From: a virus | Taxonomy: Duplodnaviria; Caudoviricetes | DNA: 64,000 bases | Direction: 5' to 3' (one strand) | IMG/VR virus record: IMGVR_UViG_3300001199_000006 | Location: 12,561-76,560 of that record | Part shown: piece after piece, positions 1-40,621 of the stretch | Layout: each line of letters starts with the position of its first letter | Numbering within the stretch: the stretch's first letter is position 1 | Program-made: the position numbers and the translations under genes | Notes under the pieces: model-generated | Database searches by the model: none | Seen by the model: only the letters and a program-made list of their open reading frames with translations | Told to the model about the DNA's origin: nothing

Positions 1-13
1 GTGTGGGTCGCGG

Positions 14-1750
14 TCATGTTTCAGAGGGAGGGGCTAGGAAGTATTGACGGATGAACGCGTTGCGCGCGTCCTCGGTTTCCAGGCGAGTGAACTCGACCAT
101 CGCGCGGAGCCGCGCCACGTCTAGCGCACGCTTCGCTTCGATGGTTGCGCGCGACAAGAACAGCTCCAGGTCCGCGCGCCACTGCAAAATCGTGATCTGG
201 TTGCCCGTGTACGTCTGCTGGACCTCGACGATGCCTCGCCCCGTCAGCATCAGCAGGGCCTTGTCGAAGATGTGGACCGACACCCCGGCCTGCTCGCGCA
301 CGGCTTGCTTGTTGACGTGGATGTGGACCAAGCGCTCGGTCGGATGCTCCAGGGTGTAGGGCTTGACGTACCGGACCCACAACATCTCGGCCACCTTGCG
401 TAGCTGAGGCTGCGTCAGCTCACGCAGCGAGCGCTCGAACAGCACGGCGTCGATCACGATCGGCGTACCGGCATCGACCGGTCGCTTCTCGATCAGGGCC
501 TTCGAGTGCATGGCGCTGAGGATCCCGCCGACCTGTGCAGGCGTCACCTTCTCGCGCATGTCCGTCGTCACAGCCTCGGCGATCGTCACGAGCGTGCGCT
601 TGAGCACCTCGCCCGGTCCCATCATGCGGTGCAACCACTCCCACACGACGCCGTACAAGCGCCAGGGCGGGTTCTCTTCCTCGATCAGCGTGAACTGGAA
701 GTTGATCGACCAGGCATCCACGATCAGGACCGCCACACTCGGTAGTCCGTCGCGACCCGCACGTCCGCACTGTTGCACCATCGCTTCGATCGAACCCGGG
801 ATCCCGAGGTTGATGACGGTGCGGATGTTCGGCACGTCCACGCCCATGCCGAAGGCGATGGTGGCGCAGACAATCGGAGTCGCGCCGCTCTTGAACTCGT
901 TCTGCACGCGCTCGCGCTCGTCCTTGTTCATGCCAGCGTGATAGAACGCGGCCAGCCCGCCACCGCGCTCGCGCTTCACAGCCTCGACCGCCTTCTCCGC
1001 CGCGCTCCGCGTGCAGGTGTAGACGATGTGTCGGCCGCCGGGATCCAGGCCCCGCACCCACTCACCCAAGAGCCGGAAGCTCGCACCCTCGGCCGCGTCC
1101 TCGACCACGTACTTGATGTTCGGCCGGATCGGGTCCGCCACGACCATCGCGAAGTCGGGGCGCATCCCGAGGCTGCTGCGGATGTCCTCGACCACCTTGC
1201 TCGTCGCCGTCGCGGTCAAGGCGAGGATCGGCGGGCGTTCTCCGCCCTTGCGCGTCAGCGCCTTGACCAGGCGGTTGATCCGCATGTAGTCGGGGCGGAA
1301 GTCGTGGCCGTACTCGGAACAGCAGTGCGCCTCGTCGCAGACCACGTACGAGACCTGCGCCCGCGCGATGTCGGTCAGGAACGTCTTGGAGTTGAACCGC
1401 TCCGGGGCCACGTACAGGAGCTTGTACCGGCCCGCGATGAAGTCGGCGATCCGCTCCGCCCGCTCGTCGTCATCGACGTGCGAATTGATGTAGGTGGCGG
1501 GCACGCGACGTCGCGCGCAGTCATCGACCTGGTCCTTCATCAGGGCGATGAGCGGCGTGATTACGATCGCACCGCCATCCTTCAACAGCGCGGGTATCTG
1601 AAAGCACGCGCTCTTGCCTGCCGAGGTTGGCAGCACGGCGATGACGTCGTTGTCAGCCAGGGCCAACTCGATCACCGCTCGTTGCGACTTCCGGAAGTCG
1701 TCGTAGCCCCAATGCTCCTTGAGAGCTTGCCGCGCGCGTGTGATGTTCAC
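14..1750 (-). CDS. recQ: RecQ-family ATP-dependent DNA helicase
   Basis: Motifs LPTSAGKS, ITPLIALMKDQV, LLYVAPERF, DEAHC, ALTATAT, YHAGM, ATIAFGMGVD, QQCGRAGRDG. Start moved to GTG at 1750, which overlaps the upstream stop (GTGA). Confidence 0.92.
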   Translation of the reverse strand: MNITRARQALKEHWGYDDFRKSQRAVIELALADNDVIAVLPTSAGKSACFQIPALLKDGGAIVITPLIALMKDQVDDCARRRVPATYINSHVDDDERAERIADFIAGRYKLLYVAPERFNSKTFLTDIARAQVSYVVCDEAHCCSEYGHDFRPDYMRINRLVKALTRKGGERPPILALTATATSKVVEDIRSSLGMRPDFAMVVADPIRPNIKYVVEDAAEGASFRLLGEWVRGLDPGGRHIVYTCTRSAAEKAVEAVKRERGGGLAAFYHAGMNKDERERVQNEFKSGATPIVCATIAFGMGVDVPNIRTVINLGIPGSIEAMVQQCGRAGRDGLPSVAVLIVDAWSINFQFTLIEEENPPWRLYGVVWEWLHRMMGPGEVLKRTLVTIAEAVTTDMREKVTPAQVGGILSAMHSKALIEKRPVDAGTPIVIDAVLFERSLRELTQPQLRKVAEMLWVRYVKPYTLEHPTERLVHIHVNKQAVREQAGVSVHIFDKALLMLTGRGIVEVQQTYTGNQITILQWRADLELFLSRATIEAKRALDVARLRAMVEFTRLETEDARNAFIRQYFLAPPSET

Positions 1751-1900: not shown

Positions 1901-2093
1901 TCACTCACGCCGTTGCTCCTCGCGCTCGTCGAGCGCGTCCGTCACGTAGTCCATCGTGCGCCGACGCGCGCGCTCGGACAACGGCAACAGATACCCGGTC
2001 GTCAGCACGAGGGCCCCGCGTGGCGGGATCGTCCAAGGCAGCCTTGAGCGCCCTCGCTTCGGTTTCGTCGCGGACCTCGATCTCGACCTTCAT
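1901..2093 (-). pseudogene. Small gene with apparent single-base frameshift
   Basis: MKVEIEVRDETEARALKAALDDPATR continues with better codon bias in another frame (ALVLTTGYLLPLSERARRRTMDYVTDALDEREEQRRE*) after a GGGG run near 2012-2020. Confidence 0.4.
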
Positions 2094-2443
2094 TGACACG
2101 CCTCCAGCTTCGCCAGTGCTTCCAGGATCCGGGTTTGAACACGCTGCCGCACTCGTGCGTTGACCGGGAACGCGAGGTCCCTGAACTTGCGCTGAGGTTG
2201 CGCATTGAGCAGGGCTCCGCACGCGTTGCAGTAGTTGCTGCTGATGCGATTCACGCACGGGCAGGCGTGGCAACGCTCCGTGAACTCCTCGCACGGCATC
2301 GCCAGGAACCGTGACCCGTCAGGGCGTTCGATCACCCGGATGCTGCGGATCACCCACTCGTCGCCGAGCGTCACCTGTCCGTAGGCTCGGACATGCGCTT
2401 CTCGCGCCGCTTGTACCAACTCGACCGCCGTGATCTCGACCAT
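2090..2443 (-). CDS. spoVG: SpoVG-family nucleic-acid-binding protein with zinc-ribbon insertion
   Basis: MVEITAV...VRAYGQVTLGDEWVIRSIRVIE...FLAMP...[CHAC..YCNACG]...FRDLAFPVNARVRQRVQTRILEA follows the SpoVG pattern. Confidence 0.8.
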   Translation of the reverse strand: MVEITAVELVQAAREAHVRAYGQVTLGDEWVIRSIRVIERPDGSRFLAMPCEEFTERCHACPCVNRISSNYCNACGALLNAQPQRKFRDLAFPVNARVRQRVQTRILEALAKLEACQ

Positions 2444-2465
2444 GCTGCAACCCTCGGTGTGAGGG

Positions 2466-2681
2466 TCAAGCATGCTCGACGCGCGCACGGATGTCTAGTC
2501 TTCGCGCGGGGATTCCGAAACTCGCCGTCAGCTCAGAAAGAACTTCTGACAGGTTGACGATCAGCTCGGCGCTCACCTCGCGCGCAAGGCGTAGCTGGTA
2601 CGTGAGGCTTTCGGCACAGGCGTTGAGGTCGTCCTCTGCGTGACAGCCGCCGCAGCGTCCACAGTCATGCCCCGTGCTCAT
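2466..2681 (-). CDS. Hypothetical protein (CxxCxxC at N-terminus)
   Basis: 71-aa ORF filling the gap between neighbours. Confidence 0.45.
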   Translation of the reverse strand: MSTGHDCGRCGGCHAEDDLNACAESLTYQLRLAREVSAELIVNLSEVLSELTASFGIPARRLDIRARVEHA

Positions 2682-3336
2682 AGCGCCTCCTGACGTTCTC
2701 TGCTCCCATCGAGCGCAGACGTTCCTCTGATTTTTTTAGCCCTAAATGGTGGGCCTTCGACACCACGCTCTTGACGCTGCGACCGAGCATCTTGGCGATC
2801 GAGACGTTCGCGGTCCCCGCGTACTCACGCTTGAGCAGCGTCAGCTCGGACGGCGTCCAGCGCGGCATCACGGTCACCAAGCCGAGGGGTGCGAGCATGC
2901 CCTTGCTTTTGCGAAGCTGGAACCGCTGCGCGGCCTCCTCGATGTTGACCTGCGTGATGGCGAAGACGGCGATGAGGTCCGAGTCGAGTACGCTCGGGTA
3001 GCAGCGCTTGAAGTCCTCTTCGTGTTCGCGTCGGAGCGGTCCATCCAGTGCAGCGGATCGCAGTGCCTCCACGCGTCGGTCCAGCTCTTCCTGCGACACG
3101 ACGAGCCGTCGTGCGATCTCCAGGCGCGATGCGCGTCGCATCAACCCCGCGCGCACGATGGAGTCGTCCAACGCGCTCCACTCGACAGCCCGCGTGGTGA
3201 ACTGCTTCACCGCTTGCCGGTGAACGCACTCGACTGTGCGTCCGATGTGGCTTGCGATCCAGGTCGCCGGGCGACGACCGTAGTAGCGCTTGAGCAGGTT
3301 GATGGTGTGCTCAGACCAACGTCCTCGTCCCGTCAT
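2665..3336 (-). CDS. Myb/SANT-like HTH repeat DNA-binding protein
   Basis: Repeated W(S/T)xxE/DxxLLxxxY...IAxxLGRS/TVxxVxxxA units, e.g. WTPSELTLLKREY...IAKMLGRSVKSVVSKAHHLGL. Confidence 0.7.
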   Translation of the reverse strand: MTGRGRWSEHTINLLKRYYGRRPATWIASHIGRTVECVHRQAVKQFTTRAVEWSALDDSIVRAGLMRRASRLEIARRLVVSQEELDRRVEALRSAALDGPLRREHEEDFKRCYPSVLDSDLIAVFAITQVNIEEAAQRFQLRKSKGMLAPLGLVTVMPRWTPSELTLLKREYAGTANVSIAKMLGRSVKSVVSKAHHLGLKKSEERLRSMGAENVRRRYEHGA

Positions 3337-3402
3337 AGTGGGCCAAGGATAGGCACGAGGTCCCGCACGGACAACTCGTTTAGGAGAACGCTTACCGACG
3401 GG

Positions 3403-3447
3403 GAAAAGAACGCGCCCGTCTGCGGGGGTCAGCCGCAGACGGGCGCG
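3403..3447 (-). terminator. Rho-independent terminator
   Basis: Perfect 15-bp stem CGCGCCCGTCTGCGG/CCGCAGACGGGCGCG (3411-3447), 7-nt loop, followed on the minus strand by TTCTTTTC, just after the stop at 3466. Confidence 0.8.
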
Positions 3448-3465
3448 AGAGCGAACGTCGAAAGT

Positions 3466-4095
3466 TCAGGGGGTTTCCGGCACGTTCGGCGGGAACGCCT
3501 CACGCAGCGCCTCGACCACCTGCCCGAGACGGCGAGCGGCCTCGCGCGAAGATTCACCCTCGCGCTGCTCGACCTTGGCCGTCACGGTCACGGGCTGTAG
3601 CGGTCCGTCCGTCGTACCCTCCCTGTCCGGGTCGTGCTTCCACGACACTTCGAGCACGATCCCGGTGCCGGTCAAGTAGCTGGTGGACGACGTCGGTAGC
3701 GTGAATGGTGTGCGCGGTGCGCCGAGTGACACGCCGAGCGATTCACTGACGTTCGGCGGGTACAGCTCCATCATCGCATCCACGGCTTCCCTGAACGCCT
3801 TGGACCAATTCCTGATCGACTGGTTGGGGCGACGCTCCAGGCGCACCGTGATCTTGCGCACAGGAGAGCCGTCCTCGGCGTCCCAATCCCACGAGACTTC
3901 CATCGAGTCACCCGCAGGAGCGGCCGGAGACCAGGTCGAGCTGGACGAGCTGCCAGGCAGGCCGAAGTACGAGACGGACTGATTCCCGACCGACAGGGTC
4001 AGGCCCGCGTGCTGCTCGCTGTAGACGAGACGCTGTGCGGAAGCGTTCAGCACTCCGAGCAGGAGCGCGAGCGCCAGAAAGAGTAGACGACGCAT
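3466..4095 (-). CDS. Secreted protein with internally duplicated ~55-aa domain
   Basis: Signal peptide MRRLLFLALALLLGVLNASA; two EVSW...TV...R...V(D/E)A..E.(Y/F)PPNV units. Confidence 0.75.
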   Translation of the reverse strand: MRRLLFLALALLLGVLNASAQRLVYSEQHAGLTLSVGNQSVSYFGLPGSSSSSTWSPAAPAGDSMEVSWDWDAEDGSPVRKITVRLERRPNQSIRNWSKAFREAVDAMMELYPPNVSESLGVSLGAPRTPFTLPTSSTSYLTGTGIVLEVSWKHDPDREGTTDGPLQPVTVTAKVEQREGESSREAARRLGQVVEALREAFPPNVPETP

Positions 4096-4181
4096 GAGTG
4101 AGTCCTTTGCTTTTTCAGGGGTCAGCTTCCGGTCCCGAAGTGAGGCCGCCAAAGCTCAACGCGCCGAGGTCCCTCCGGCGC

Positions 4182-4196
4182 TTGACACGGTGTCAA
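4182..4196. repeat. Dispersed palindrome copy 1 (TTGACACGGTGTCAA)
   Basis: Intergenic, upstream of the secreted-protein gene. Confidence 0.9.
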
Positions 4197-4294
4197 ACGC
4201 AACACGATCTCCGGATCTCGCCTGAGCGCGCGCATTCATCAAACCCTATCCCGGCGTGTAGAAAGCCGCAATAGGGTTTCCCCGGAAGTGCGAG

Positions 4295-4870
4295 CTAACC
4301 CGCCAGGAGCGCGTGGGAAGCCGCGTAGACGCGGTTTCGACCTTGCCGCTTGGCCGCGTACAGCGCTTGGTCGGCACGGCGCAGCGTGTGCGCTGCCGCG
4401 CCTGGGGCCAGCTCCGCCACTCCGGCACTGATCGTCACGGCACGTCCGAGGTCAGGAATCACCGAGGCTTCCAGGCGCTCGCGCAAACGCTCCGCGACCT
4501 GCGCGGCCTCTGTCTCGGGCGCACCCGGGCACAGCACGATGAACTCCTCACCGCCCCACCGGCACACTTCGTCGCTCGCGCGCACGCCAAGGACGAAGAG
4601 CTGCGCGGCCGACCGTAGCACTACGTCACCGACGTCGTGCCCGTGAGTGTCGTTGACCAACTTGAAGTGGTCGATGTCGAGCAGGATCACGGACGTGCGT
4701 CGATCGGCGCGCGCTTCTTGCGCGAGCCGCTCCTCGACGAAGCGCCGGTTCCACAACCCGGTCAGCGGATCGGTGCGCAACGCCCTGGAGAGCGCGATCA
4801 CCTCCGACCGTAGACGATCGACTTCCAGCACGAGCTGCGTCCGCGACAGATCATCAGGCTGCATGTTCAT
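4295..4870 (-). CDS. Diguanylate cyclase (stand-alone GGDEF domain)
   Basis: TDPLTGLWNRR, ILLDIDHFKLVNDTHGHDVGD, RASD-x5-GGEEF, TISAGVA, ADQALYAAKRQGRNRV. Confidence 0.95.
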   Translation of the reverse strand: MNMQPDDLSRTQLVLEVDRLRSEVIALSRALRTDPLTGLWNRRFVEERLAQEARADRRTSVILLDIDHFKLVNDTHGHDVGDVVLRSAAQLFVLGVRASDEVCRWGGEEFIVLCPGAPETEAAQVAERLRERLEASVIPDLGRAVTISAGVAELAPGAAAHTLRRADQALYAAKRQGRNRVYAASHALLAG

Positions 4871-4877
4871 GGCTCCA

Positions 4878-5090
4878 TCAGGAAGTTCGACGCACTTCCC
4901 AGCGTTCGCAATCGTCCTGCGACAACTCGACCGGTGACTCGATCACTCCGAACGGGAACTCGCGCGTCTCGGGCAAGTCGAAGCGTGAGCACGTCGAATC
5001 CAAGTAGCCGCGCTTGACCCATGTCCAGGTGAAGCCGCGAGGCCAGCTCGTCGCCGTGGGCGGTCGGTACAGGAGGCCGTAGCGCGTCAC
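4878..5090 (-). CDS. Small protein resembling the DarA C-terminal domain
   Basis: YGLLYRPP...PRGF...FGVIESPVELSQDDCERWEV resembles the YG..RP...P.GF...G.ieY..eL...e...yel pattern; recalled similarity only. Confidence 0.45.
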   Translation of the reverse strand: MTRYGLLYRPPTATSWPRGFTWTWVKRGYLDSTCSRFDLPETREFPFGVIESPVELSQDDCERWEVRRTS

Positions 5091-5692
5091 CGCACGGCTC
5101 CCCCGCACGACGACTCGGTCACGACCACGGCGCTGCCCTTGGTGATGCGCGCGCGTTCGAGTCCCGGGATGTCCGAGGTCCACTGCCCGAGCGTGAAGTT
5201 CGGCAGCACCTCGCCGTCGATCTCAGGATGGTACCGGCGCTGTTCGGGCGCGAGCTGTGCCGCCAGATCCGCCGACATCCAGCCGATCACGAACCACTCG
5301 CCCTCGACGTCGTCGAACTGGTAGTGACGACCAAGCGAGCGCGTCGAGCCCGGGTTCCGGACGTACGACGGCGGGAGCGCACCGGACACGGCGAACCGCT
5401 CTTCGACCGACGCCCGCTCGCCGCGATCGTACGCCGGGCACCCCGGCGACACCGGGCGCGTCAACTTGTAGCGCACGGCCGGATAGACCGTGCGGCCGAT
5501 CGCGAGGTCGAAGACCCCGAGGATCTCGACCTCGGGGATGCGGCGCAGATAGGTGAGCAGCGCGTGGTGGTACGGGTTCATGGCGTGGTTCATCGACGAA
5601 GAAGGATGCGGCACTTGAGCTATAGCGGGGCAAGACAGTTCCGGCACTTGGCAGGCGCGCCGTCGTGCTCGGATGTCAGTGGGCGGCATCAT
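5087..5692 (-). CDS. Hypothetical protein
   Basis: Coupled ORF; start ATG at 5692 overlaps the upstream stop. Confidence 0.65.
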   Translation of the reverse strand: MMPPTDIRARRRACQVPELSCPAIAQVPHPSSSMNHAMNPYHHALLTYLRRIPEVEILGVFDLAIGRTVYPAVRYKLTRPVSPGCPAYDRGERASVEERFAVSGALPPSYVRNPGSTRSLGRHYQFDDVEGEWFVIGWMSADLAAQLAPEQRRYHPEIDGEVLPNFTLGQWTSDIPGLERARITKGSAVVVTESSCGGAVR

Positions 5693-5862
5693 CGAATCCG
5701 CTCGCGGAACTCGGTGACCGCGCGCCCCAGCGCGTAGCCCGCGCGCCCGACGACGTGCGGCGGGACCGTCGTCCAGGCCATCAGCACGTCCGTGCGACCT
5801 GTGCGGAACCACAGCGCGAAGGACTGCGACACGTTGACCGGGTTCAGGTACTTGCGGTTCAT
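5689..5862 (-). CDS. 57-aa hypothetical protein (not in ORF track)
   Basis: MNRKYLNPVNVSQSFALWFRTGRTDVLMAWTTVPPHVVGRAGYALGRAVTEFRERIR*; ATGA coupling at both ends. Confidence 0.6.
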   Translation of the reverse strand: MNRKYLNPVNVSQSFALWFRTGRTDVLMAWTTVPPHVVGRAGYALGRAVTEFRERIR

Positions 5863-6161
5863 GCCGCCGCCTCGATCGGGAACGCGCCGTTGTTGGTGCT
5901 GAACTCGCGGATCGGCCAGCCCTTCGCGTTGGTCACGCGCGGGACGACGATCTCACGTCCCTCCGCGTACGCGATCTCACCCGAGCCCGCGTACGTCAGG
6001 GCCTTGCCCAAGCGCACGCGCAGGCTTGACCCGTTGACGCGCACGACCTCGGCCTGCGCGACGTAGTGGCGGTGGCTGTGCGTCCACCGCGCCTCGACGA
6101 TCTGCCCGGGCTGGAGCGCGGACTCGAACGTGATCTGTTCCAGGAACCAGTTGTCGTTCAT
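5859..6161 (-). CDS. Hypothetical protein (beta-rich)
   Basis: MNDNWFLEQ...; coupled to the downstream gene. Confidence 0.65.
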   Translation of the reverse strand: MNDNWFLEQITFESALQPGQIVEARWTHSHRHYVAQAEVVRVNGSSLRVRLGKALTYAGSGEIAYAEGREIVVPRVTNAKGWPIREFSTNNGAFPIEAAA

Positions 6162-6168
6162 GGGCGAG

Positions 6169-6381
6169 CTATCGGCTGACCTTGGCGTCGGGCTTGAGCC
6201 TTTCCGCCCACCAAAGTCCCATCGAGCCCCGCACCTCGTACCACAGCCGCACGCGGTCGCCGACGGCCCCATCGCGGAGCCCGTCCCAGCCTGCACGAAG
6301 AAAATGCACGGTGCCGTCGTCGCACAGGACGCGCTGGAAGCCGTCGGCCCGTACCTCGGTGATCGCTCCGTCCTTCGTCAT
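6169..6381 (-). CDS. Small OB-fold/cold-shock-like protein
   Basis: GAITEVRADGFQRVLCDDGTVHFL...GAVGDRVRLWYEV, an OB-like strand pattern. Confidence 0.5.
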   Translation of the reverse strand: MTKDGAITEVRADGFQRVLCDDGTVHFLRAGWDGLRDGAVGDRVRLWYEVRGSMGLWWAERLKPDAKVSR

Positions 6382-6394
6382 CGCGTCTTCCTCT

Positions 6395-7900
6395 TCATGC
6401 ACTCTCTCCTGGTTTGCGCACCTTGACCATGATGGTCGAGACCCCGGTCCCCGCCTCCTCGAACGCGCCGTCCGGGAGTTTCTCGATCTCGGCCTTGTGC
6501 TCGGCCAGGAACTTCGTGAGCACGCCGTAGCGGCCGTCCCGGCGCGTCGCGGCGCTCGCCGACATCACCGAGACCAGCACGCCGCCCGGCTTCACGAAGC
6601 GCCAGGCGCGGAGAACGTGCTCGACCTCCTGCGCGCCAGCGAACGGCGGGTTCATCACGACGGCGTCGTAGGACCCGAACTCCACGGGCAAGGCGGTGAA
6701 GAAGTCCAAGGGCAGGACCGTCACGCCGGGCTCGCCCTCTTGCTCGACACGCCGCGCCAGGTGTCCGAGCATCTCGATCCCGTGCGGATCGTTCTCGACC
6801 GCCGTGATGTCGCGGACCCGAGCGCGCAAGAGCGCGCGCACGATCGCGCCCTCCCCGGCCGAGGGCTCCAGGACGCGCGAGTGTGTGTCGAGGTGGGCGG
6901 CTTCGACCAGCTTGTCCGCGACCTCGGCGGGTGTGTAGAAGGCTTGACGCGCCTGCTTCTCGGTCCGGGCCAATGCGAAGGTCGTCGGACGCCGTGCTTC
7001 CTGCGCCTGCTTCTCGGCCGCAGCCCCGCGCGGCGGCGGGAGCGCGCCCGGGTAGCGCCGCGCCATGATGAGGTTCATAGCATCGACGTGCTCGGGGTTG
7101 GTGATGCGGACGTGCGTCGTGCCGACTCGGAATATCTTGATCCGCATCAGTGGCTCGGCGTCGGGGCCGAGCGGGCTCGGGACGTCGATCCACTTCCCGA
7201 ACGGGATGGGCCCAAGCCATCGCAGCCCGACGCCGTGCCCGGACGGCGGGAGCCCCGCGAGCAGGCAGAGCACGCGTTCGAGGTCGTGCAGGCTCTCGTG
7301 ACTGGACAGCGAAGCCGTGTCACCTTGGAGCGAGCGCGGGTGCAGGTAGAACGCGTGGTTCACGATGAGCTTCTCGCCGATGCGCGTGGGCTCGTTCGTG
7401 CGGTGTTCCCAGGAGAGCGAGCGATAGACGGCCTCGACGCAGCGCTCGAAGTATTCACCACGCTGGGCGTGTACGGCCGCGATCGTGGCCTCGATGTTCT
7501 CTCGCGTCAGCGCGGGCAAGTCGGCGGGCGCGTGCTTGGTGAACCGCGCGAAGCCCCTGGACCGGTGCAGTTGCTCGAACAGTTCACCGCGCGTCTTGTG
7601 GTCCATGATCGTGTCGATCTGCGTCAACACGTACAGGCGGAGCCAGAAGTGACGGTCGATCTCCTGCTCGATCGCCGTGGCGTTGCGCGGGTCCTGGATG
7701 TCGGCGGGGTTCCCGTCGGGGAAGTGAACGCTGACACGCGGCAGCTCGACTCCGAACACGCCGACCTGCTCCTTGGCTTGGTCGAGTAGTCGCACCGACT
7801 CCTTGAAGGCCGCTTGCGCCGCGTCGCGCGCGGCGAGCAGGGCCTCGATGCTGACGGCCGAGATGATGGACGCGGCTCCGGGTGCTTGTGCAGTGGTCAT
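6395..7900 (-). CDS. DUF4942 domain fused to C-terminal N6-adenine-type DNA methyltransferase
   Basis: DUF4942-like SIEALL...RTNEPTRIGEKLIV...LHDLERVLCLLAG...MNLIMARRYPGALP; then FYTP, VLEPSAGEG (SAM motif I) and VVMNPPF (motif IV). Confidence 0.85.
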   Translation of the reverse strand: MTTAQAPGAASIISAVSIEALLAARDAAQAAFKESVRLLDQAKEQVGVFGVELPRVSVHFPDGNPADIQDPRNATAIEQEIDRHFWLRLYVLTQIDTIMDHKTRGELFEQLHRSRGFARFTKHAPADLPALTRENIEATIAAVHAQRGEYFERCVEAVYRSLSWEHRTNEPTRIGEKLIVNHAFYLHPRSLQGDTASLSSHESLHDLERVLCLLAGLPPSGHGVGLRWLGPIPFGKWIDVPSPLGPDAEPLMRIKIFRVGTTHVRITNPEHVDAMNLIMARRYPGALPPPRGAAAEKQAQEARRPTTFALARTEKQARQAFYTPAEVADKLVEAAHLDTHSRVLEPSAGEGAIVRALLRARVRDITAVENDPHGIEMLGHLARRVEQEGEPGVTVLPLDFFTALPVEFGSYDAVVMNPPFAGAQEVEHVLRAWRFVKPGGVLVSVMSASAATRRDGRYGVLTKFLAEHKAEIEKLPDGAFEEAGTGVSTIMVKVRKPGESA

Positions 7901-8097
7901 GCAGGCTCTTTCGGCTCCTCGGGCGCTTCGACTTGAGTCCGACGGTTCGGGCAGTCCAGGCTGGTGTGGACTCTGAACGAGTAGCCGAAGCAGTCGCAGT
8001 CGGCCTCGACCACGCGTCCGCCGTCGCTCCAGCGCGTGACCTTGACGCGCACGCCGTTGCGCCGCGTCACCTCCACCGAGACGGGTTTGCGCTTCAC
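7897..8097 (-). CDS. Small hypothetical protein (CxC...H...C)
   Basis: GTG start overlapping upstream TGA. Confidence 0.55.
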   Translation of the reverse strand: MKRKPVSVEVTRRNGVRVKVTRWSDGGRVVEADCDCFGYSFRVHTSLDCPNRRTQVEAPEEPKEPA

Positions 8098-9742: not shown

Positions 9743-9802
9743 GCCCGCCTCTTCGGCAAGCGTACCGCCCGAGCTTGAGCGAATCCGGGTGGAAAGCGTT
9801 TC
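9743..9802 (-). promoter_or_regulatory. Early-gene upstream motif A
   Basis: GAAACGCTTTCC-N11-CTCAAG-N17-CCGAAGAGGCGGGC-ATG; near-identical to motifs at 40.1-40.3 kb. Confidence 0.65.
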
Positions 9803-11064
9803 TAGGGCGGGAAGATCGAGTTGAGCCAGGCCCGATGCAACTCGATCTCGTACTGGATCGAGGGGTCAGTGGAGTCGATCAGGTCCACGAGTTCGAGCGG
9901 ATCTGACACGGTGTCAAAGAACCACTCCTGCACGGACGGGACACTCGTCGGCGTCCCGGTGCGCCGGAACTTGTACCGTGGCGAGACGGCCGCGATGTCG
10001 GCGGGGAGCGGATTGTCTCCGCGCGTCCCGCACACCACGTAGCTGTGGATCTGCTGGGCTTGGCCCAGGGCCAAGGGCATGAGCGACATCGAAGGGCTCG
10101 ACAGCGGAACGGTCCGCCCGTACCGCTCCGCGATCGTCGCGTAGATGTCCACGGCATGCACGAGCGCGGGGCTCGTCTGTCCCGACGGGATACCTGCACC
10201 GGCCACGATCAGCGGCACGTCGATGCCCCGCCAGAACGTCGTGGTCTTGGCGCGCTGCGTGCCCGCGACGTCGCGAGGCGTGCCGTTGTCGCCGATGATG
10301 ATGAGCAAGTCGTCCGGCGTCAGCAGCGGGAGCATCGCCCCGACTTGCGTGTCGAGCGCGACGATCATAGCCTCGTACTTGTCGCGATCGGTCGGCGTGT
10401 CAGGGTAGCCGTTGGGCAGCCACAGTGCGTCGGGCCGGTGGAACGGGTCATGCGCGAGCTGGGCCGAATAGACCGCGAGCTTCGGTCCCGGCGTGCTCGT
10501 CCACCAGTAGTACCAGCGCGTGAACATCACGGTCGGTTGGTACTTGTTCGACGTGCTCTGCACGCCGTCCTCGACTCGCACCCAATCCCAATACGAAGTC
10601 CCGCCGCAGGTCGTGACGTTCCCGCCCGGGATCACGCCGCGATAGACCGAGTACCCGTGCTCACCGGGCGCGCGCTGCCAGTCGTTCAAGCTGTTGGGGT
10701 TCGCGCCCTCGTGCCACTTGCCGAAGAAGCCCGGTGACACGCCGACCGGCGACACCAGATCGGCGAGCGAGATGAGCGACGACGGCGGTGTGCGGTTCGT
10801 CGGGATGTAACAGACCTTGTCGGTCGGAGCGACGCGCCATCCGCCGAAGTCGATCGCGTACCGCGTCGGCATGCACGTCGGCGACGCCTTTGCGTTGGTG
10901 AACTTGATCCCGTAGTCCGCGACCCTCTTGATGTTCGGGCAGCGCCCATCCGCCATCAGCTCTTCGAGGTCGATCTCACCGACGTCGTCGAGGATGAACA
11001 CGATCGTGTCTTGCGCGCGCAACGTCGGCGCGAGCAACAACAGCAAGGTCAGCAGCATCTTCAT
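9802..11064 (-). CDS. Secreted Cys-type (formylglycine-dependent) sulfatase
   Basis: Signal peptide; IVFILDDVG, CMPTR (CxPxR), GKWH, HDPFH, GDNG, K.T...GIDVPLIV. Confidence 0.88.
   Translation of the reverse strand: MKMLLTLLLLLAPTLRAQDTIVFILDDVGEIDLEELMADGRCPNIKRVADYGIKFTNAKASPTCMPTRYAIDFGGWRVAPTDKVCYIPTNRTPPSSLISLADLVSPVGVSPGFFGKWHEGANPNSLNDWQRAPGEHGYSVYRGVIPGGNVTTCGGTSYWDWVRVEDGVQSTSNKYQPTVMFTRWYYWWTSTPGPKLAVYSAQLAHDPFHRPDALWLPNGYPDTPTDRDKYEAMIVALDTQVGAMLPLLTPDDLLIIIGDNGTPRDVAGTQRAKTTTFWRGIDVPLIVAGAGIPSGQTSPALVHAVDIYATIAERYGRTVPLSSPSMSLMPLALGQAQQIHSYVVCGTRGDNPLPADIAAVSPRYKFRRTGTPTSVPSVQEWFFDTVSDPLELVDLIDSTDPSIQYEIELHRAWLNSIFPP
9904..9916. repeat. Dispersed palindrome copy 2
   Basis: TGACACGGTGTCA inside the sulfatase CDS (FDTVSD). 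Confidence 0.9.
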
Positions 11065-11894: not shown

Positions 11895-12259
11895 GGTTTC
11901 CCCTCGGCGGCGAGCTGCTGCCTGATCCGCTCCAAGTGCTCCGACGCTTGCTGCATCGACGCCTTTGCGCGGTCTAGCCGTGCCGTCCAGAACTCCGTGC
12001 TCGCGTGCAGCGCCTCGATCAGCGTGTCATATCCATTCGAGGGAGGCGTCGGATCCGAGCGGCGCGCGTGGAACCGTTCGCCGCATTCGCCGTACGGGCT
12101 GCCGCCCACGTACTCCCCGAAGACCTGCCACTCACGCACAAAGTCCGCACCCTCAGATTTCGGGTACAGCCTGCTCCAGGGGGTGAACTCGTGCCACACG
12201 TAGCGGGTCTTGACGACAAGGCCGTCGCGGACGAGAAACCGAACAACTTCGTTGGTCAT
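11891..12259 (-). CDS. Hypothetical protein
   Basis: 122-aa ORF with C-terminal coiled coil; ATGA coupling. Confidence 0.65.
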   Translation of the reverse strand: MTNEVVRFLVRDGLVVKTRYVWHEFTPWSRLYPKSEGADFVREWQVFGEYVGGSPYGECGERFHARRSDPTPPSNGYDTLIEALHASTEFWTARLDRAKASMQQASEHLERIRQQLAAEGKP

Positions 12260-12633
12260 GCTGTCGGGTCCTCCAGTTCAGGCGGGATCTGGATCCCGAG
12301 CAGCTTGGCGACCTTGACGTAGACCTCGTCGTCCATGTTCCAGAGATTCATCCGCGACGACAGCTCGCCCCGCGTCTCGTACCGGAACACGTCCAGATCG
12401 ACTTCACGCTGCGTGAACGCCCAGTCGCGATGCGGCCCCGTCTTCGGGACCTTGGCCGGGTGTCTGTCGTGCGCGTGCGCCGCGACGATCCAACTCCGTG
12501 AGGTCTCCCCCGTGATCGTGCGCGGTACCCACTGTGCTTTGCGAATCAGCACGCCACCGAACGGCTTGCCCGGCACCTTCGTGTAGACGCGGCGGTTCGC
12601 GTCGAACTGCCAGATCGTGTCCCCGACCTTCAC
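12256..12633 (-). CDS. Hypothetical phage protein
   Basis: MKVGDTIWQFDANRRVY...; GTGA coupling. Confidence 0.65.
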   Translation of the reverse strand: MKVGDTIWQFDANRRVYTKVPGKPFGGVLIRKAQWVPRTITGETSRSWIVAAHAHDRHPAKVPKTGPHRDWAFTQREVDLDVFRYETRGELSSRMNLWNMDDEVYVKVAKLLGIQIPPELEDPTA

Positions 12634-14227: not shown

Positions 14228-14680
14228 CTATCGGCCGCGCCCCTCGCCCAGCTTGAACGAAAACGGGGGTTCCGGGAACGACGGCAGGTACCCGCTCCCG
14301 GGCGGCGGAGGCCGAGGCGGAGGGGACGGGGCCGACGGATCGAGCACGCCGCGCGTCCAGCCCTTCTCCGGGTGTGGCTCGACCAGCGGTCGTCCGTCCA
14401 GGCGCAGCCACTCGTCCAGCTCGTGTAGCACGCGCTTCATCAGCACCTCGCGGATCCACCAAAGGAACTGGCGCTCGTCCCAATACATCCACTCGAAGCG
14501 CGTGCGAGCTTCGGTGAACGTCACGGGCAGCGGCGGTGCGCTGGACGCGGCCTCGCTGTCCGGCTCCCAGGTGCCGCAGCGGAAGACGATCGCGTCGGAC
14601 GGATCCACGTACAGCTCGAACCACCAGCCAGGGCGGTACGTGATCTTGGCCGCCAAGGCGCGCATCTCGTCGAGCGTCAC
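14228..14680 (-). CDS. Hypothetical protein with Pro-rich tail
   Basis: ITYRPGWWFEL...VLHELDEWLRLDGRPLVEPH; GTGA coupling. Confidence 0.65.
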   Translation of the reverse strand: MTLDEMRALAAKITYRPGWWFELYVDPSDAIVFRCGTWEPDSEAASSAPPLPVTFTEARTRFEWMYWDERQFLWWIREVLMKRVLHELDEWLRLDGRPLVEPHPEKGWTRGVLDPSAPSPPPRPPPPGSGYLPSFPEPPFSFKLGEGRGR

Positions 14681-17637: not shown

Positions 17638-19161
17638 TCACGCTTCCTCCTTGGCCGCGACGGTCTCGCGACGCAGCGCCGGGCGGAGCTTGGGTTCCTG
17701 CACGAGCAGGAGCGCGAGCTGCGCACCGAGCCGGGTCAACGCCTCGTGGTAGCCGTGCGCCAGGTGATCGTCGCACCACTCGTGCCCCAGCTCATGCAGG
17801 AGCAGCTCGACGTGCTCGATGCGAAGACCTTCCGCCCCGTCCTCAAACCAGCGGTGCCCGAGCACTTGCAAGTTGAGCGTGAGGAAACCGCCGCGCCCGT
17901 ACCACGCTGCGAAGCGGTTCGCGTTGTCGCGCACGATGCGGATCGAGAGTCCGGTGCGATCGCGCAGGAGGGCTTGGCCGATCAGCTTGAAGCTGACGCA
18001 CACCACCTTTTGCGCGTCGGTCCATCTCTCGAACGGCACCTCGGTGTCGATGCCGTCCGGCGAGAACCTCGGGTGCTTGGTCGGCGTGACCTGTCCCGCC
18101 GCCTTCATCGCGCCGGTCTCGCGCACGCGCTCCCACGTCTCGGCCGGGAGTGCGCCGCCCGGGACCACGGTGTAGCCCTCGGACGCCGCGCGCTTGCTCG
18201 CCTCGGGATCCGACGGGTCGTAGGTGACGCGCCGCTTCCCGAACCGCTCGTCCAGCACGTTTGACACCGTGTCAGGCGCGGCCTCGGCCAGGGCCTCCGT
18301 CACCCACTCCTCGCGTGCCTCCTCGGCCGTGAGCAGCTTGTGCGCCGCGTCCAGGACGGCGACGCGCAGCCGCTTGAGGAACGCGGGCCGCACGTTCTCG
18401 CGGTCGAGCGTGAGCGGGATCTTCTGCTTGACGTTGATCCCGAACGGGCCGTCGATCGCGACGACCGGGATGCCCATCTCGTACAGCTTCGAGCCCGAGC
18501 CGTGCCGCCACACCTCGATCGCGGTCTCGCGCTCGACCAGGCGCAGGTTCCCCTCCTCGTCGGCCAGCTCGGTCTGGAGCTTAGCACGCAGCACGAGGTC
18601 GGGCGCGCCGTGCAGGTCGTTCAACACGTAGGTGACGCCGCCATCCCCACAGCGCGTCAGCACGGTGGTGCGGATGTGCGTGGGCGGGATCAGGTTGCGC
18701 AAATCCTCCGCGACTTCGTCCAGCTCGGCCCGTGTCATCGGCATGATCGCGGTCAGCACGGTTCCGCGCTGGGTCGCGGCCTTCGACGTCGTGCGCGAGC
18801 CGTCGGCGTGGAACATCACGGTGCCCGTGGTGCTCACGATCTCGGCCTCGCGGCAGCGCGCGAGGAACAGCTTCTCACCCGCGTTGAATCGCCCACGCGT
18901 CTCGGCCAGGCCCTTCTTCCGGGACGCCGCGAAGAGCGTGTAGCTCTCGGCCAGGTTGGCGAAGCCGTTCGGTGCGTCGTCCATGACCGCGATCTCCACC
19001 CGGGGCTGCCCAGGGAGCGCAGTGATCGAAATCGCGACCTTGGTCACGCCCGGCTCGTCCCAGGCGTTCGAGATCAGCTCGGCGATCGCCCGGGCCTTCG
19101 TCTGACGACCGAGCACCTGGGCCAGGCCGTCCTTGTCCACCTCGAACCATGCCTTCGTCAT
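17638..19161 (-). CDS. GHKL (HSP90/MutL-like) ATPase with C-terminal HExxH motif
   Basis: ELISNAWD (N box), DDAPNGF (G1), RGRFNAGEK (G2), GT; C-terminal LLHELGH...HL...YH. Confidence 0.8.
   Translation of the reverse strand: MTKAWFEVDKDGLAQVLGRQTKARAIAELISNAWDEPGVTKVAISITALPGQPRVEIAVMDDAPNGFANLAESYTLFAASRKKGLAETRGRFNAGEKLFLARCREAEIVSTTGTVMFHADGSRTTSKAATQRGTVLTAIMPMTRAELDEVAEDLRNLIPPTHIRTTVLTRCGDGGVTYVLNDLHGAPDLVLRAKLQTELADEEGNLRLVERETAIEVWRHGSGSKLYEMGIPVVAIDGPFGINVKQKIPLTLDRENVRPAFLKRLRVAVLDAAHKLLTAEEAREEWVTEALAEAAPDTVSNVLDERFGKRRVTYDPSDPEASKRAASEGYTVVPGGALPAETWERVRETGAMKAAGQVTPTKHPRFSPDGIDTEVPFERWTDAQKVVCVSFKLIGQALLRDRTGLSIRIVRDNANRFAAWYGRGGFLTLNLQVLGHRWFEDGAEGLRIEHVELLLHELGHEWCDDHLAHGYHEALTRLGAQLALLLVQEPKLRPALRRETVAAKEEA
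18262..18274. repeat. Dispersed palindrome copy 3
   Basis: TGACACCGTGTCA inside the GHKL CDS (PDTVSN). Confidence 0.9.
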
Positions 19162-19679: not shown

Positions 19680-20177
19680 CTATCGAACGGGCCGAGGTCC
19701 GGACTTGAACCATTCCGGCGGAAGTGAGAGGCGCACCGGCGAGCCCGCAGGCCAATCAGCGGCAGAGCACGTCAGCGTGTCAATGTCCAGAGGATCGCCG
19801 AAGCGTGCAACGCGGACCGCACCCTCGCGCACCACGGTCCCGGCGTGCATCAGCGCGAAACGTGTCGCGCGCCCCGTGGCCTTCACGTCGCCTTCGACCC
19901 GATACCCATCACCGACGCGTCCGCTGAACAAGTCCCGACCCTTCTCGTCGAGCACGGTCACGGTGTAGCCGTGCCAGGGCTCGGGCGAGCGCTTCATCCA
20001 GGCGTCCACGTCGAGGATCTTCCGACGCTCGCGGCGCGCGCGATGTAGTCGCCACGTCTCCCACGTCCACAACCCAGCGAAGCACGCCGCGATCAGGAAC
20101 GCGACCCAGCACCCGAACGAAAACGCGCCGACAATCCAGCGCAGCCCTTCCATCAAGAAGTCGGTGACCATACGCAC
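19680..20177 (-). CDS. Membrane-anchored hypothetical protein
   Basis: N-terminal hydrophobic helix followed by a basic stretch. Confidence 0.6.
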   Translation of the reverse strand: MRMVTDFLMEGLRWIVGAFSFGCWVAFLIAACFAGLWTWETWRLHRARRERRKILDVDAWMKRSPEPWHGYTVTVLDEKGRDLFSGRVGDGYRVEGDVKATGRATRFALMHAGTVVREGAVRVARFGDPLDIDTLTCSAADWPAGSPVRLSLPPEWFKSGPRPVR

Positions 20178-40142: not shown

Positions 40143-40264
40143 GCCCGCCTCTTCGACCACGGTACCACCGGGTCTTGAGGGAAAGCGTTTCCGACCGAAG
40201 AAAGTGCTCGCGCGGTCCGGTTTTCGCCTCAAGGTCGCGGTACGCCCTGGCCGAAGAAGTGGGC
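40143..40264. promoter_or_regulatory. Divergent early-gene upstream motifs B and C
   Basis: Minus: GAAACGCTTTCC-CTCAAG-N17-TCGAAGAGGCGGGC-ATG; plus: CTCAAG(40228)-N17-CCGAAGAAGTGGGC-ATG. Confidence 0.65.
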
Positions 40265-40591
40265 ATGAGCAACGCCAAGTTCACCGAGACGTCCACTCCG
40301 GCGGTCATGCGCTTCGCCTACGACAGCGGCGCGCAGTGGAAGGTTAGCCCGCACGGTCCCGACGACCCGGACCGAGACGCTGTCTGGTGTGACTCACGCA
40401 CCGAAGCGGATCGTGTCGCCGCGTGCGAACGATACCGGAACGCGGTCGCAGAGCTGACCAAGGCTCAAGAACGCCTCCGCACCGCCGTGCAGCACATCGA
40501 CACGTACGAATCGAGGTACGCGGTCGAGCGTTTGAAGCGCGAGGTCGAGGCCGCGCGCGAAGCACTGCCGGAAGACCTCAAGACGCGTTAG
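40265..40591 (+). CDS. Hypothetical protein
   Basis: MSNAKFTETS...; C-terminal coiled coil. Confidence 0.6.
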   Translation: MSNAKFTETSTPAVMRFAYDSGAQWKVSPHGPDDPDRDAVWCDSRTEADRVAACERYRNAVAELTKAQERLRTAVQHIDTYESRYAVERLKREVEAAREALPEDLKTR

Positions 40592-40621
40592 GCCCAGAGC
40601 CGACACACAAGCACGGAGGAC

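Follow-up and report, generated by a model that had tools for sequence, protein, structure and literature searches.

The locus considered here raises the question of whether a bacteriophage carries, as a gene of its own, an enzyme for making c-di-GMP, the signal by which the majority of bacteria set their motility, adhesion, matrix production, development and progress through the cell cycle, and of what would control such an enzyme. The window analysed is a stretch of 64,000 nucleotides belonging to a linear, 76,560-bp IMG/VR virus record (CheckV 58%). Overall, the evidence was best explained by a phage-owned cyclase that would dimerise constitutively and raise c-di-GMP in the host cell during lytic infection. 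This interpretation is held with moderate confidence, and several others were weighed against it.

The most likely product of the cyclase gene is 189 amino acids long, because a GGAG element is found 8 nt 5' of the ATG at 4864, the gene caller returned a product of this length (P0001) and the starts of homologous proteins align with the same codon. The gene begins 13 nt past the stop codon of the preceding gene B (7 nt if ATG 4870 is used). The protein matched the Pfam GGDEF family (PF00990; E = 2e-42, 145.1 bits against a cut-off of 23.8) across profile positions 3-161 of 161, and TIGR00254 with 155.6 bits against a cut-off of 37.4; chance could not produce such matches. The complete GGDEF domain described in the sequence-only reading was therefore borne out, as was the motif quoted there, which is present as DIDHFKLVNDTHGHDVGD. 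The same reading had placed an RxxD inhibitory site (I-site) five residues ahead of GGEEF, and this could be confirmed directly, since R-A-S-D is followed by EVCRW and then by GGEEF. D63, K68, N71, D80, GGEEF, K172 and R176, which comprise the active-site loop, the Asp that binds metal and the Lys, Asn, Asp, Lys and Arg that bind substrate, were invariant in 10 homologues; these catalytic residues aligned with their counterparts in Dcsbis, PadC and WspR and map onto PleD residue numbers. Within the I-site, R95 was invariant and D98 was retained by 9 of the 10 family members (D98A in the other). By all sequence and fold tests, the protein is a GGDEF diguanylate cyclase with an I-site.

Profile searches of Pfam and NCBIfam/TIGR detected no second domain besides GGDEF; a sensor domain is absent, and the rest of the protein is an N-terminal helix of approximately 22 residues. 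This stand-alone status is real, because the upstream ORF lies in another frame and a length of 180-193 aa is conserved throughout the family. Assignment to narrower families failed in two cases: the SiaD equivalog model (NF038266) scored 169.4 bits against a cut-off of 290, and the PleD family model (NF007135) scored 146 bits against 474, with its C-terminal GGDEF part alone aligning to a protein that has no receiver domain. In hybrid promiscuous (Hypr) GGDEF enzymes, which synthesise cGAMP, the base-reading residue (equivalent to D344 of PleD) is Ser or Thr. In 10 of 10 family members it is Asp (D80), as in cyclases specific for GTP; this favours GTP as the substrate and disfavours a cGAMP-type product. 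The coordinates of these and other features are given in Table 1.

Table 1. Positions of the cyclase gene, its parts and associated features (window coordinates unless a locus or record is named)
Feature	Position	Strand	Basis or remark
Diguanylate cyclase gene	4295..4864 (ATG 4870 alternative)	minus	189 aa (191 aa from ATG 4870)
GGDEF catalytic domain, residues 31-178	4331..4774	minus	Pfam PF00990 and Foldseek
GGEEF active-site loop, residues 104-108	4541..4555	minus	sequence read; invariant in family
RxxD inhibitory site, R95-A-S-D98	4571..4582	minus	five residues ahead of GGEEF
N-terminal helix, residues 8-29	4778..4843	minus	AlphaFold2; ends at DxLT turn D32-P-L-T
Gene B, 70-aa ORF, GTG start	4878..5090	minus	start overlaps gene A stop (GTGA)
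Gene A, ORFan, 164 aa (168 aa from alternative ATG 5593)	5090..5581	minus	first operon gene
Promoter-like motif TCAAG-N16-GTCGAT(GA), i.e. TCAAG-N16-GTCGATGA	5590..5618	minus	directly 5' of operon
Copies of TCAAG-N16-G(C/T)CGA(T/A)	5592-5618, 6171-6197, 7910-7936, 9752-9778, 14230-14256, 19682-19708, 40152-40178	minus	
Copies of TCAAG-N16-G(C/T)CGA(T/A)	40229-40255, 40578-40604	plus	
Stem-loop AAACCCUAU...AUAGGGUUU	4241..4279	minus	without U tract; just past cyclase stop
Palindrome TTGACACCGTGTCAA	4179..4199 (also given as 4183-4197)	minus	perfect 9-bp RNA hairpin; just downstream of cyclase
Secreted-protein gene, 209 aa	3466..4095	minus	ATG 4095, AAAGGA 7 nt upstream
Intrinsic terminator	3411..3447	minus	15-bp G+C-rich stem then TTCTTTT; sole canonical one in 3300-6500
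Acb2/Tad1-like gene, 178 aa	L182:541-1077 (record 12041-12577, reaching window 1-17)	minus	weak match
Syntenic GGDEF gene of relative G004	L099:1420-1914 (G004:113375-113869)		fast-evolving

An AlphaFold2 model based on the alignment of ten homologues (pLDDT 91.5, pTM 0.84) comprised a single helix, a DxLT turn and a standard GGDEF fold. Foldseek matched it to many solved cyclases (E 1e-18, TM 0.74-0.83); the closest was 6ttr_A, with a TM of 0.83 over 184 columns, followed by GCN4-WspR, WspR, PadC, SiaD and PleD. The short N-terminal coiled coil proposed from the sequence was also recovered, as the modelled helix carries heptads and no other domain accompanies it. The a/d series L11, V15, L18, V/I22, L25 and L/V/A29 is kept in the ten-member family, and beside these residues stand the charged g-e pairs E14-R19 and E21-R26, a pattern expected of a parallel dimeric coiled coil, albeit a short one of about three heptads. 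In a gap-free HMMER alignment the phage a/d residues coincided with those of the GCN4 zipper in the GCN4-WspR hybrid (3i5c), at an equal distance from the DxLT turn. That hybrid serves as the comparator for a productive, constitutively dimerising linker, and better heptads activate a silent GGDEF domain (PMC13725321).

In the proposed mode of action, two subunits would pair through the short parallel coiled coil, the paired GGDEF half-sites would condense two GTP into c-di-GMP with no input signal needed, and binding of product at the RxxD site would cap the output. It is reasonable to infer that activity is constitutive and feedback-limited; dimerisation, activity and product are all predictions for what would be a sensor-less, product-limited c-di-GMP synthase. 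The model is built on an intact domain, the register of its heptads, the conserved residues and a gene that is syntenic and the phage's own. It is tempered by divergence of the copy in a complete relative (G004), a 143-kb relative that lacks the gene, a coiled coil of only about three heptads and the absence of PilZ and EAL genes from the phage.

Phage ownership was examined through the gene context. The viral context assumed in the sequence-only reading held, with phage hallmark genes on both sides of the locus and synteny in a complete relative. Nearly all genes in the record lie on the minus strand, at a G+C content of approximately 66%, and they describe a contractile-tailed phage in which the cyclase gene sits between the tail and replication modules. 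One flank contains the tail sheath, baseplate hub and wedge, and tail fibres; the other contains SpoVG, two helicases, DnaB, primase and a family A polymerase (PolA). The GC3 of the cyclase gene (0.80) is similar to that of its neighbours and somewhat below that of the structural genes. No cultured phage was closely related: the polymerase was 33% identical to that of SPO1-like Bacillus phages and the sheath 25% identical to that of cyanophages; GenBank phages included no close relative of the cyclase, sheath or polymerase.

A complete IMG/VR relative of 156,008 bp (G004), with a sheath 59% identical, is collinear with the cyclase region. Its gene order is methyltransferase (60% identical), GGDEF (37.5%), D5-like regulator (35%), helicase (46%), helicase (50%), DnaB (65%), primase (53%) and polymerase (56%), with the GGDEF gene in the equivalent slot; a chimera at this locus is therefore very unlikely. 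Further, indirect evidence came from contig statistics: P0006, which is 57% identical to the cyclase, and P0125, which is 81% identical to the sheath, had identical statistics from the same sources (four contigs, the longest being 142,426 bp). A more distant, 143-kb relative contained no GGDEF gene, which shows that the cyclase gene is dispensable; its absence from two fragments as well is uninformative. A search for an integrase in the record and in two near-complete relatives was negative, and the enzyme therefore probably acts in lytic infection rather than in lysogenic conversion. The phage is apparently a virulent myovirus of about 130-156 kb.

Several other phage genes were noted, the first two as possible clues to the host. 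A SpoVG homologue (2090-2488, minus strand; PF04026, E = 4e-14) shared no more than 42% identity with its counterparts in a Planctomycetota sample, and a Myxococcota sample yielded none. A sulfatase-family protein in the non-structural region (9802-11064, minus strand; PF00884, E = 1.7e-13) was only 29% identical to its nearest match in a Planctomycetales genome. There were no tRNAs in the record. DUF4942 and a methyltransferase domain are joined in a 501-aa protein (6395-7900, minus strand; PHROG: DNA methyltransferase), which has a 60% identical counterpart in G004 and whose gene is immediately preceded by a copy of the promoter motif described below. A 507-aa protein (17638-19161, minus strand) belongs to no Pfam or PHROG family and is conserved in G004 (48%).

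Phylogenetic analysis placed the cyclase among its own kind. Ten short homologues, 55-90% identical, were compared with the sixty next-best homologues after trimming to the matching region, and formed one clade with an SH-aLRT of 98. Across 185,579 prokaryotes (one genome per species), cellular proteins were at most 53% identical among the matches listed, aligned over the catalytic domain only and were scattered over many phyla; no donor could be named from among the matches listed in that scan. Other relatives in metagenome and genome scans, where the general GGDEF superfamily dominated, reached approximately 53-54% identity at most among the matches listed. A profile search of 1.84 billion representatives retrieved mostly multi-GGDEF proteins, and P0004 and P0010 were the only short, single-domain proteins. 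Judged from these comparisons, the cyclase and its relatives seem to be a small, phage-specific clade inside a well-known enzyme family.

The syntenic protein of G004 is 164 aa long and sits on a very long branch in the tree; at approximately 37% identity it is much more diverged than its neighbours (46-65%). GGDEF, the Asp that binds metal, the Lys and the base-reading Asp are retained, as is an N-terminal D-L-T-R-T-Q-L motif, but Gln replaces the Asn that binds guanine and the RxxD is shifted by one residue. Given this divergence and these substitutions, selection on catalysis has not been uniform in the lineage, and catalysis may be relaxed, or function altered, in the G004 branch.

The cyclase is the third gene of an operon, after genes A and B, which are translationally coupled to it. 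Transcription from the promoter-like motif directly ahead of gene A would produce a leaderless mRNA whose first codon is ATG 5581. Allowing up to one mismatch, TCAAG-N16-GNCGAT had 13 occurrences in the window where 4.95 were expected, and none of 100 shuffles reached 13. Several copies ended exactly 10-11 nt ahead of the start codons at 5581, 6161, 7900, 9742 and 19672. The motif was present in G004 too, where a GGTCGATGA element lies 8 nt ahead of the GGDEF start. This distribution suggests a class of phage promoter for leaderless mRNAs of non-structural genes, and the repeated motif is sigma-28-like in appearance; no sigma-70-like promoter was found in 3300-6500. The sequence-only reading had assigned the cyclase to an early gene array, and this was not established: the gene belongs to a non-structural region with a repeated non-sigma-70 promoter motif. 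A 57-aa ORF ahead of the operon promoter (5689-5862, minus strand), whose ATG overlaps the upstream stop (ATGA), is probably real.

Downstream of the cyclase, a 131-nt region containing the stem-loop folds at -55.1 kcal/mol (z -2.2), and the palindrome that follows has a similar counterpart, GTGACAGCGTGTCAC, upstream of the G004 GGDEF gene (L099:1261-1275). The 209-aa protein encoded next has a signal peptide and two internal repeats ending in PPNV, with no Pfam or PHROG match; its gene is possibly the last of the transcription unit. The sole canonical terminator lies past this gene, and its position indicates that the unit is probably A-B-cyclase-(secreted protein). The GGDEF gene of G004 also precedes a gene for a secreted protein of approximately 200 aa with a signal peptide (L099:2007-2705, plus strand), and the two secreted proteins have no detectable homology. 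According to the favoured model, the phage's own repeated promoter motif would drive the cyclase together with the two small ORFans and, probably, the secreted protein; the enzyme would be made in lytic infection, and the infected cell pushed to a high-c-di-GMP state. The host outputs that might be relevant to the phage (motility, pili, exopolysaccharide, cell cycle, development) are speculative, as are the receptor masking, superinfection exclusion, biofilm formation and interference with defence that the sequence-only reading proposed.

The best surviving alternative is an active cyclase that is not constitutive, its activity being switched on or off by a partner that binds the stalk, in the manner of SiaC and SiaD; the partner would be encoded by gene A, by gene B or by the host. 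SiaD was the top NCBIfam model for the cyclase, with the stalk included in the match, and the SiaD-SiaC structure (7e6g) was among its best structural matches, although the model score fell far below the cut-off. In addition, R8-T9-x-L11 is invariant in 10 of 10 family members and recognisable in G004, despite its position N-terminal to the core heptads. The translational coupling of genes A and B to the cyclase is also consistent with a partnership, as is the co-occurrence of gene A with the closest cyclase homologue, judged by a second set of shared contig statistics (P0003, a cyclase homologue at 87%, and P0242, a gene A homologue at 71%; longest contig 105,042 bp). However, gene A could be detected neither for the P0006-type phage nor in G004, and the conserved unit is therefore the cyclase alone. 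Nor do the candidate partners have a recognisable fold or family: gene A had only two homologues (P0242 and P0243, the latter 42% identical), nothing was found for it in Pfam, PHROGs, Atlas or Foldseek, its AlphaFold2 prediction was confident in one of five models, and gene B has no Pfam family. Regulation by a partner was regarded as rather unlikely.

A related proposal is a self-contained module, in which gene A would encode a new c-di-GMP receptor, with a faintly PilZ-like barrel, that acts together with the cyclase and the secreted protein under the sigma-28-like leaderless promoter. If this were true, the phage would both write and read c-di-GMP, and the outcome could be envelope remodelling, the exclusion of rival phages or the timing of its own gene expression. 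VIA-align comparison of gene A placed the PilZ proteins YcgR, MotI, MrkH, PA0012 and Alg44 near the top, with Z of 3.6-4.6. These values lie below noise, and therefore no receptor claim is made for gene A, the resemblance being at most a lead. PilZ receptors are barrels marked by RxxxR and (D/N)xSxxG motifs; the single RxxxR of gene A is not conserved in its homologues, and PilZ (PF07238), EAL and sigma-70-family genes were not found in the phage record. The module is an improbable reading.

It is similarly doubtful that the enzyme serves in counter-defence instead of the control of lifestyle. In that case the cyclic dinucleotide made by the phage would jam the cyclic-nucleotide immunity of the host, pre-empt it or compensate within it, for example by refilling a guarded nucleotide pool depleted by the phage's own sponge. 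A 178-aa protein encoded beside a helicase, in the replication module, had a weak match to the Acb2/Tad1 hairpin (E = 5e-5) and could be a cyclic-nucleotide sponge, although its 23.8 bits fall under the Pfam cut-off of 27. It has been proposed that the GGDEF domains of invasive elements might interfere with nucleotide-based responses of the host (Iyer et al. 2017, PMC5512222), and guard systems are known that sense the activity of sponges (Panoptes, PMC12657218). Against this, the cyclase has the base-reading Asp of a canonical c-di-GMP enzyme, and no defence system neutralised by c-di-GMP was found in the literature searched. Furthermore, c-di-GMP would harm the phage in bacteria with c-di-GMP-sensing STING effectors, such as those reportedly described by Morehouse and colleagues in 2020 (cited in PMC13725321).

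A mainly non-catalytic role, as a binder or sponge of c-di-GMP through the I-site or as a scaffold, like degenerate GGDEF receptors, would account for the conserved RxxD site and the relaxed active-site conservation in the G004 copy; yet the catalytic residues are all invariant in ten close family members, which is unexpected for a pure binder and makes this role highly improbable. Lastly, an assembly chimera or a recently captured, functionless passenger gene from a host might be suspected in an incomplete metagenomic contig where the cyclase GC3 is somewhat low, especially as many public 'phage' GGDEF matches are host flanks or contaminated records, but this explanation was largely refuted and is barely credible, given that several kb of phage genes flank the gene on either side, that a complete relative has a syntenic GGDEF gene, that the clade is phage-associated, cellular proteins reaching no more than 53% identity among the matches listed, and that the reading frame and active site are intact.

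The preferred reading is that of a constitutive, dimeric cyclase belonging to the phage. The locus contains an intact, phage-owned, minimal diguanylate cyclase gene whose product is predicted to synthesise c-di-GMP, and the phage probably raises this signal in the infected cell by means of the enzyme. A virulent phage with a sensor-less synthase would override the c-di-GMP decision of the host from inside the cell. The protein also has practical value as a natural, readily expressible, 189-aa minimal enzyme with clear catalytic and I-site controls, and its clade, including the divergent copy in a complete relative, allows comparison. Although not a new kind of system, it would allow a clean test of a class of phage gene that is often annotated.

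Among known proteins, DgcB of Caulobacter crescentus (6ttr) is structurally the nearest, having likewise a single stalk helix and a GGDEF domain with an I-site; it aligned over 184 of 189 residues with 35% identity (TM 0.83). However, DgcB is cellular and its structure was solved for a construct taken from a longer protein, whereas the phage protein is naturally short and occupies a separate clade. The GCN4-WspR hybrid shares the a/d register noted above, but is engineered and has a longer zipper than the phage helix; WspR itself requires its receiver domain, which the phage cyclase does without. De and colleagues are said to have found in 2009 that the hybrid is active without phosphorylation. 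SiaD of Pseudomonas aeruginosa (7e6g, NF038266; E = 9e-50) also consists of a stalk and a GGDEF domain, but needs SiaC for activation, and the phage yielded no gene resembling that for SiaC.

Phage-borne GGDEF genes are already known at the level of annotation. SXT-type conjugative elements encode the cyclases DgcK and DgcL. Within PHROGs there are seven GGDEF families, all with their function annotated as 'unknown'. GGDEF domains occur in phage polyvalent proteins, for which interference with host nucleotide signalling was suggested (Iyer et al. 2017, PMC5512222); diguanylate cyclase genes are reported from a Mu-like virus (PMC7785012) and from Methylobacterium viruses (PMC8290583), and phage G has a gene annotated 'DgcQ' (PMC12484599). 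No annotated phage GGDEF protein was within 45% identity of the present one in IMG/VR, or within 60% among GenBank phages, where 'phage' GGDEF matches were mostly unannotated or contaminated records. Of the IMG/VR loci inspected (L002-L007), four had the GGDEF gene at a contig end, probably in the host flank of predicted prophages, and none was close. The literature searched, mainly outside subscription journals, contained no functional study of a phage-encoded diguanylate cyclase. The GGDEF proteins of these other phages and mobile elements are mostly longer, sensor-bearing or fused, or are found in temperate elements; in contrast, this cyclase is minimal and stand-alone, and holds one constant genome position in an apparently virulent myovirus. 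Phage interference with c-di-GMP has otherwise been directed at host enzymes, for instance through the YfiN-binding peptides of Pseudomonas phages (PMC8085984). Whereas such known tactics act on the cyclases of the host, this phage brings a synthase gene of its own.
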